From NCBI RefSeq assembly GCF_041248615.1, contig NZ_CP158426.1: DNA of 64,000 nucleotides. One strand, written 5' to 3'. Under the pieces are notes generated by a model, which ran no database searches, was not told the DNA's origin, and worked only from the letters and a program-made list of their open reading frames with translations. A program made the position numbers and the translations under genes. Positions 63,126 to 63,900 of this stretch are shown one piece after another (position 1 is the first letter of the stretch; each line of letters begins with the position of its first letter). Source of the DNA: Escherichia coli (GTDB lineage: Bacteria; Pseudomonadota; Gammaproteobacteria; Enterobacterales; Enterobacteriaceae).

Positions 63126-63732
63126 CAGCCTCACTTCTGCTGTTTCGCAGTTTTTTAAGTTTCTGTTGATACTCCGCCTTGATGGCCCTGCACTCTTCGA
63201 CAGTCCAGCGATGGCGGTTATGGTTTGATTCGATTTCGTCTACTGCTTCCTGCCCGATGCGGTTAATCAGTTCGACGCGATACGGAACGAGATTTCCGCT
63301 TTTGTGCTGGTTGCACACCACGCATTGCTTGTGAATATTGCGTTCATCAAATCGGAGTTGAGGCGCCGCAGCAGTTGTCCGGTAATGCCCGGCATCCCAC
63401 TGAGCAGACGTGAGCGTTCCGCACGAGATACATGGTAAGTCGCGGTCTCTTTCTCTGATGAAGGCGTTTACGGCTTGTTGGGCTTGTTTAATCCAGTAAC
63501 TGCGGGGCTTTAAGGCGAGTTTTCGAATCTTAAGTTTATCTTTCTGTTTCTGCTCCTCTCGTCGTCGTTTCTTCTCTGCTGCCTTTTCCGCTTTTTCGCG
63601 TTCTTTGCTTCGTCGTTCGAGTGCTATCTTGGTTCCACACTCTGGAGAGCACCACCACTGATTGGCGAATGCAGGGTGAAACCATTCCCGACATTCATCG
63701 TTTTTACATCGTCTTCGCGCTGGTTTAGCCAT
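63121..63732 (-). CDS. ninG: NinG (Rap) recombination protein
   Basis: 203 aa; basic, Cys-rich; matches lambda NinG-like sequence; stop overlaps phosphatase ATG. Confidence 0.85.
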
Positions 63733-63900
63733 CGTCTTCTTCCTCGTACATCGAGCTATTCGGATCGCTCATCAGTTCTGCGCAGCAATGCGCAGCACAC
63801 GTGAACTTCAAGCACATGCAGCTTCTGACCGCAGTTAGCGCACGTTAAAGCTCGCTCGACGCTTCCTTGTTCGTAACTTCGATTTGGGTCAATCACCTTG
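63727..63900 (-). pseudogene. ninF: ninF-like small gene, apparently frameshifted
   Basis: C-terminal ..[21 protein letters not shown] ends at a TAA overlapping the ninG start; NinF-like ..ANCGQKLHVLEVHVC lies upstream in a different frame; boundaries approximate. Confidence 0.4.

Follow-up and report, generated by a model that had tools for sequence, protein, structure and literature searches.

The ninF gene of bacteriophage lambda (nin56, lambdap67; Pfam family PF05810) lies between ninE and ninG, and its product is listed among the proteins of unknown function in the lambda interactome (PMC3224144). Knock-down of ninF is tolerated if Q is provided, and deletion of the entire nin region is possible (PMC10695390). 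In fact, the literature that we found on the function of NinF goes only as far as classing it as function-unknown and non-essential. Described systems of a different kind are also relevant to the locus reported here. In E. coli, complex changes that turn quasi-palindromes into perfect ones constitute a described class of template-switch mutation (PMC7202029), and free-standing HNH (HNH_3) homing cassettes are found in phage genes.

Here, we describe a ninF allele carried by a lambdoid prophage within a 64,000-nt stretch of E. coli DNA (hereafter, the window). As in lambda, the gene is located between ninE and ninG, its GTG start codon overlaps the stop codon of ninE and its original stop codon lies over the start of ninG; the 301-nt segment that contains it is 95% identical to lambda DNA. 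By contrast, the window gene has 172 nt instead of 171, its frame is broken after codon 34 and its product has 46 aa instead of 56; moreover, the flanks of the break belong to a lineage that encodes Ser-Asp at the affected codons, while lambda encodes Glu-His. When compared with gene decay in resident lambdoid prophages, the locus falls in the same category (a small indel in an accessory gene beside a pseudogene), with nothing substantively different. The lesion resembles the quasi-palindrome and quasi-repeat mutations of E. coli (PMC7202029) in being a clustered change that makes an imperfect repeat perfect, with the template a few nt away. It differs from the quasi-palindrome mutations observed with reporters in that it is read off a comparison of natural alleles, with an inferred ancestor, and in that a mosaic of two natural alleles would give the same product. 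As for the homing cassettes, one of the HNH_3 type is inserted in ninF in 44 other genomes, with varied neighbours, whereas the window lacks it.

Reading frames of ninF and their prophage setting

In the window, ninF extends from 63896 to 63725 on the minus strand, between ninE and ninG and with start/stop overlaps on both sides, as is also the case in lambda, SfI and the E. coli strain NRZ14408. The 3′ end of ninE (63893..64000, minus strand) is cut at the window edge, and its TGA overlaps the ninF GTG as GTGA. From this GTG (63896), the first open reading frame (frame A; 63756..63896, minus strand) covers NinF codons 1-34, continues through 12 out-of-frame codons and ends at a TAG (63758-63756). 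According to the list of open reading frames and the three-frame translation of the minus strand, its product is a 46-aa protein formed by MIDPNRSYEQGSVERALTCANCGQKLHVLEVHVC plus 12 out-of-frame residues. The native 3′ remnant (frame B; 63725..63787, minus strand) is in the +1 frame and reads TGC TGC GCA GAA ... GAT GGC TAA; it encodes the native C-terminus, and its TAA (63727-63725) overlaps the ATG of ninG (63732-63730) in the sequence ATGGCTAA. NinF is, as a result, split over two frames, with a longest piece of 46 aa compared with a single open reading frame of ~56-61 aa in the family. When frame A is compared with the Pfam model of NinF (PF05810), it matches positions 1-17 of 25 (E 4.9e-8, 33.2 bits, cutoff 27.5), while the repaired protein matches all of them (positions 1-25 of 25, E 7.8e-14, 51.7 bits).

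These observations bear out the original prediction that a ninF-like gene was frameshifted here, with two pieces in different frames: the list of reading frames, the three-frame translation and the extension of the Pfam match from 17 to 25 of the 25 positions on repair all agree with it. The interval that had been given for the gene, 63727-63900, is right within a few bases, the TAA of the C-terminal piece does overlap the ninG ATG, and translation yielded no intact single-frame ORF of NinF length, the finding that had been named as contradicting the frameshift.

The comparison of lengths leads to the same result. The window segment 63700-64000 has 301 nt, while its aligned counterpart has 300 nt in lambda, SfI and Sf6; the suggested alignment with lambda ninF thus returned a net +1. 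The span of 300 nt was also observed in the best 30 of 160 full-length phage matches and in the single-piece top E. coli matches listed, the latter taken from a search that found full-length matches to the ninF segment in 1,538 genomes and of which the single-piece top ones were compared. For the gene itself, 171 nt is the length of every intact ninF allele examined (the best 30 from phages, the top single-piece E. coli alleles listed and the 16 loci encoding a repaired protein). As intact alleles span 300 nt and the window 301, ninF in the window contains a net insertion of one nucleotide, a result that is far beyond chance.

The prophage that carries this gene is located at the lambda attB region, between the bio/ybhB side (ybhB/bioA) and ybhC, and it occupies the window from ~34700 to 64000 and beyond (3590427-3632476 in NRZ14408). 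A lambda-like early region and nin region are combined in it with non-lambda, baseplate-type tail genes (baseplate J, DUF2184, DUF1073), and two acyltransferase genes are found at its far end. The nin region itself shows other losses. The gene of a NinI-type Ser/Thr phosphatase (62568-63124, minus strand) is a pseudogene that, compared with the intact EC102 gene, has a 115-nt internal deletion with its junction near 63011, and ninG is followed by the phosphatase gene without a ninH in between. It was thus fair to regard the ninF frameshift, as had been done, as a second sign of nin-region decay. The phosphatase lesion is annotated as frameshifted in NRZ14408 and PRO_A-1407; being shared with these genomes, it must be older than the ninF lesion. 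The ren gene of NRZ14408, beyond the window, is also frameshifted. In this context, the loss of ninF represents ordinary decay of a known prophage gene, and RefSeq already contains its truncated product as “NinF”.

The lesion at codons 35-36 and its apparent template

The frame break falls between the Cys34 codon (TGC, 63797-63795) and the Cys37 codon. At this place (63788..63794, minus strand), the window carries the 7 nt TGCGCAT instead of a variable hexamer that constitutes codons 35-36. In intact alleles, this hexamer is either TCCGAT, encoding Ser-Asp (“SD”), or GAGCAC, encoding Glu-His (“EH”), and it is followed by the conserved TGC TGC GCA GAA. The EH hexamer is carried by lambda, SfI, Sf6 and NRZ14408, and the SD hexamer by EC102, ATCC 11775 and many others; both are common, with protein clusters of 508 and 324 members. 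When homologous positions were compared in the loci L001-L024, ninF was otherwise ~97% identical between both types, but the dimorphism extended to the wobble base of Cys34 (TGT GAG CAC vs TGC TCC GAT), so that 6 of 7 bases are different.

Compared with the SD allele, the window sequence has a C>G change at 63793 and an additional C at 63790, 3 nt apart. Compared with the EH allele, one insertion and two substitutions within 8 nt are required. In addition, the T at 63810 is common to the window and to the SD alleles of EC102 and ATCC 11775. The smaller number of changes at the hexamer and this shared T indicate that the SD allele is the nearer relative of the window allele. The 1-nt indel that had been predicted between the two pieces is consequently right as a net +1, but not as a lone 1-nt event, since it is accompanied by one (vs SD) or two (vs EH) substitutions. 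The suggestion that a homopolymer might be the source of an error did not fit the site either: the sequence around the inserted base is GTGTG[C]TG or CG[C]AT, where there is no run, and the base has one or two substitutions next to it, and we rejected a homopolymer sequencing error for these reasons.

The two changes relative to the SD allele convert TGCTCCG-AT|TGCTGCGCAG into TGCTGCGCAT|TGCTGCGCAG, creating a 9-nt repeat at an offset of 10. This direct repeat (63779..63797, minus strand) is perfect and is formed by TGCTGCGCA at 63797-63789, a T at 63788 and TGCTGCGCA again at 63787-63779. Since the palindrome CTGCGCAG is present in the downstream copy, these two changes also produce a perfect hairpin (63778..63795, minus strand), in which CTGCGCA (63795-63789) and TGCGCAG (63784-63778) form 7 bp around the loop TTGC (63788-63785). 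The predicted free energy of this hairpin is -9.6 kcal/mol in the window, as compared with -4.4 in the SD allele and -5.3 in the EH allele.

Such a coincidence of features is infrequent among comparable changes. We enumerated 20,220 ninF variants with one substitution and one nearby 1-nt insertion; a direct repeat of at least 9 nt that covers both changes was formed in 0.2% of them and a hairpin of at least 7 bp in 0.36%, values that are to be read as post hoc, given that the repeat was noticed before testing; the SD-type ancestor is likewise a presumed one. Both changes raise the identity or complementarity to the nearby repeat, a pattern that is characteristic of template switches. Overall, the lesion looks complex (a substitution plus an insertion) and templated.

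The account that we favour for the whole locus, with moderate confidence, is that ninF is a genuine, recently formed pseudogene that arose by a template switch on a recombinant SD allele and represents neutral decay. A short recombinant patch would have brought in an SD-type allele, displacing the resident allele of the EH type. The most likely route from there would be one template switch (a quasi-palindrome or quasi-repeat correction) on the SD-type allele, by which C>G and +C would have been copied from the adjacent TGCTGCGCA/CTGCGCAG. Translation from the GTG then leaves the native frame after Cys34 and reaches the TAG 12 codons later. As NinF is dispensable, the lesion should be neutral.

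Ancestry of the ninE-ninF segment and rival explanations

The window is colinear with the genome of E. coli NRZ14408 (NZ_LT599825.1, 3555669-3619667). Over window positions 1-63747, both sequences differ by one substitution (at 61920, in the tRNA-Thr/tRNA-Asn spacer downstream of Q) and no indels. A third genome, NZ_OZ547461.1, is 100% identical to the window over 60000-63393 and, therefore, has the window base at 61920. By contrast, a patch of 233 bp (63748..63980, minus strand) that comprises the 3′ end of ninE and ninF differs from NRZ14408 at 9 positions, namely 8 substitutions and the insertion; its left limit may lie beyond the window, which ends at 64000. The ninF of NRZ14408, the only ninF-like place on its chromosome, is intact, of the EH type and encodes 56 aa in frame (WP_000567007.1). 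The near-identity to a genome with an intact ninF implies that the lesion is recent and that the assembly is otherwise clean.

Outside the lesion, the patch contains six variants (63980 G, 63902 T, 63886 C, 63861 C, 63810 T and 63748 T), and all six are standing polymorphisms in other natural alleles. As these bases already exist elsewhere, the patch is better explained by recombination, and we ruled out local hypermutation of the resident EH allele. The segment formed by the ninE 3′ end and ninF thus has an ancestry different from that of the remaining prophage. Among intact alleles, the ninE-ninF DNA closest to it is that of EC102 (WP_000566872.1), which has the SD hexamer in frame and is 98.0% identical to the window and 99.3% identical to the hypothetical donor; it is separated from the window by the C>G and +C changes at the site plus 4 flanking SNPs. 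No full match to the exact progenitor or donor was found among the 16 loci encoding a repaired protein, EC102, 1008S13 and 21 viral contigs with G at 63980, and a comparison of haplotype patterns and of a synthetic donor (“X”) yielded no allele with exactly matching flanks. Similarly, the 56-nt haplotype of the left flank had no match in viral and metagenome collections, and the ~50-nt sub-haplotypes of the patch are each unique in very large collections.

The lesion itself is equally restricted. Among ~15 billion proteins, the exact 46-aa product had one match, WP_370144293.1 (“protein NinF [Escherichia coli]”), from a single 5,341,331-bp contig, while each of the two hypothetical repaired proteins has exact matches, on 18 contigs for SD and on 20 for EH. 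The derived DNA motif had no match in 2.9 M viral contigs, 16.6 M genome contigs and 241 M metagenome records, and a short-query BLAST against 5,426 complete E. coli genomes gave no exact match, its best hit having 97.2% identity. A contig index search found no second copy of the window allele beyond the single source record. The NCBI pipeline (PGAP) labels the 46-aa product (63756-63896) as “protein NinF”, with no frameshift flag, while it does flag the phosphatase gene of the sister genome. Because of this singleton status, an error in that one assembly is possible.

In its most developed form, such an error would be an assembly or consensus artefact, produced by merging reads of two ninE-ninF alleles, one EH (like that of NRZ14408) and one SD (like that of EC102). 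This is the rival explanation that survives best, and we regard it as a serious possibility, if not a probable one. The reads of the second allele would come from another lambdoid element in the strain or from a mixed culture, and a spurious +1 would appear if both members of a compensating gap pair were kept. In a three-way alignment (GTGTG-TGAGCAC for EH, GTGTGCTCCG-AT for SD and GTGTGCTGCGCAT for the window), every window base is that of EH or SD; column by column, the 7-mer is a perfect mosaic that runs SD, EH, SD, EH, SD. The informative sites that flank the hexamer also alternate between NRZ-like and EC102-like bases; however, two variants, 63980-G and 63902-T, are absent from both presumed parents, and each of them is found in other natural alleles. 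Under the scoring schemes of bwa, minimap2 and bowtie2, an alignment of EH and SD with two gaps scores at least as high as the ungapped one, and 8 of 32 such mosaics have the +1, but the perfect repeat appears in only 2 of 32 random mosaics. The uniqueness of every ~50-nt sub-haplotype, the presence of the allele in one assembly only and the fact that all the differences from the sister genome are in prophage segments conserved among lambdoids are what would be expected from merged reads. Conversely, the remainder of the sequence (63.7 kb) has a single SNP and no indels compared with NRZ14408, and this genome has a single ninF-like place, so that there is no evident paralogous source of reads. 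It must be noted that the EH allele is already like the downstream repeat copy at the columns involved, and, thus, the mosaic and the template switch predict the same product and are inseparable from sequence alone.

The next explanation involves a mobile gene that is inserted beside this site in other genomes. In other E. coli prophages, ninF is split by a 543-nt, AT-rich cassette that encodes a 168-aa HNH_3 endonuclease (PF13392, E 1.2e-19), of which WP_001244575.1 is an example. The equivalent insertion point in the window is 63785..63786 (minus strand), between ...GTGTGTGAGC and CTGCGCAGAACTG..., so the lesion (63788-63794) adjoins it; the cassette is absent from the window. Copies were located at L048 3785-4336, at L053 1711-2253 and in L055-L061. 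In total, 44 of 5,426 complete E. coli genomes (~1%) contain the cassette, with 98-100% identity, and all 50,697 phage genomes on deposit lack it. Three kinds of gene are found downstream of it and several upstream, including ninE and ninX. The cassette supplies a substitute C-x2-C motif (…VCERCIYEC…), and the split ninF′ keeps a full Pfam match. A search of the literature for an HNH gene inside ninF, or for the biochemistry of the HNH_3 enzyme, returned nothing apparently relevant. Other small genes are found nearby: a 268-nt ORF (L054 1768-2037, E. coli GB089) and a different HNH_3 gene, of 188 aa (L013 3164-3730), are each located exactly at the ninF/ninG junction. These cases suggest that small mobile genes have an insertion hotspot at the 3′ end of ninF.

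Regarding descent from a cassette-bearing allele, two candidates were rejected. The lesion is not a deletion scar of the cassette, whose junctions (GAGC|GTTGTATATATG...GACCATAA|CTGCGCAG) lack the CTGCGCATTG of the window. Likewise, the rare right-flank haplotype TCGATGTAC is not a marker of HNH-bearing descent: the right flank of the window is identical to that of the HNH-containing locus L048 (86/86), but HNH-containing alleles carry all three right-flank haplotypes (G..T, A..T and G..C), and at least three sites in their left flanks are different from those of the window.

With these data, it can be considered, as an unlikely alternative, that the allele is a real, fine-scale EH x SD recombinant. 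The resident EH allele, in this view the cognate site of the cassette, would have been broken, possibly by the endonuclease inserted in the ninF of a co-infecting phage, and its repair, with an SD-type donor and several switches of template, would have left a mosaic tract and a 1-nt scar at the target site. In fact, a distance of only 2-10 nt separates the cassette junction (63786/63785) from the mutated bases, the site is enclosed by the divergent patch and the 7-mer is a mosaic of both alleles. Moreover, an EH-type left junction is present in the nine cassette copies examined (9/9), and the sister genome is also EH. In yeast, a preprint describes break repair as highly mutagenic through template re-alignment (10.1101/2023.08.09.552703). 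However, the link between the lesion and the endonuclease is one of position only, the right flank shared with L048 is not diagnostic, at least four of the examined cassette copies are annotated as partial pseudogenes, and five allele switches within 8 nt would be extreme for a biological tract. Homing would normally copy the cassette into its target, and the window has no HNH cassette. An extension of the same idea, which we consider more doubtful still, is that the codon 35-36 hexamer would be the target of the HNH enzyme, the EH/SD dimorphism and the 7-nt variant would be escape alleles, and the window variant would be the scar of a cut followed by error-prone, template-switching repair.

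It is very unlikely that two independent point mutations fell by chance 3 nt apart, with the repeat and the hairpin as coincidences. Such mutations would be tolerated, as ninF is non-essential, and the prophage already has other lesions. However, the rest of the 64-kb window differs from the sister genome by one base, which makes two hits at this distance very improbable; both changes match the adjacent template, as happens in 0.2-0.4% of the combinations, and intermediate alleles with one of the changes were absent in deep sampling.

Finally, we dismissed as barely credible a decoding of the frameshift by a programmed +1 ribosomal shift or by transcriptional slippage, or a role of the 46-aa protein as a functional short isoform, since, although PGAP names the product “protein NinF” rather than a pseudogene and skipping T 63788 would give ...VCCACCAEL..., with the native C-x2-C spacing, the sequence reads with no slippery or hungry-codon motif at GCA-T-TGC, no homopolymer and no stimulatory element, C37 is lost from frame A, and the two-frame arrangement was found in no other sequence of the protein, viral, genome and metagenome collections or of 5,426 E. 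coli genomes, while recoding sites are conserved among relatives.

Consequences for NinF, ninG and the prophage

Four cysteines (C19, C22, C34 and C37) are kept in all the intact NinF variants aligned, including the form split by the HNH cassette (VCERC), while C38 is not always present. NinF also has weak Pfam matches to zinc-ribbon families. From these features, we infer that NinF is a four-Cys zinc ribbon with Cys37 as the fourth ligand. The cysteines of frame A are C19, C22, C34 and C35, with no C37; that is, the first CxxC and Cys34 remain in the 46-aa product, while Cys37 and the acidic tail are lost. Because of these losses, this product is probably inactive.

The effects on the following gene are expected to be smaller. 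The ninG (rap) gene (63121..63732, minus strand) is intact and encodes 203 aa, and a Shine-Dalgarno-like motif, GAGGAAG, is located 9 nt upstream of its ATG, inside the 3′ remnant of ninF. Ribosomes that translate frame A of ninF would now stop 23 nt before the ninG ATG, instead of overlapping it. As its own ribosome-binding motif is kept, ninG is probably still translated, and the coupling with ninF is perhaps altered.

Consequently, the lesion is expected to have little consequence for the biology of the phage or the host, given that no function is known for NinF and that deletion of the nin region is possible. For the protein family, the record labelled “protein NinF” represents a slight pollution. 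Of more general interest, the lesion provides a neat natural case of a frameshift that is complex and apparently templated, as opposed to a homopolymer slip. In addition, a hypervariable hexamer in ninF came to light when the lesion was traced, next to the point at which a mobile HNH endonuclease cassette inserts. This HNH_3 cassette could be a small and tractable homing system. If the escape-allele idea were true, the window would have captured a step in an arms race between a homing endonuclease and its target inside a lambdoid accessory gene, in which the site was mutated at the cost of the gene.
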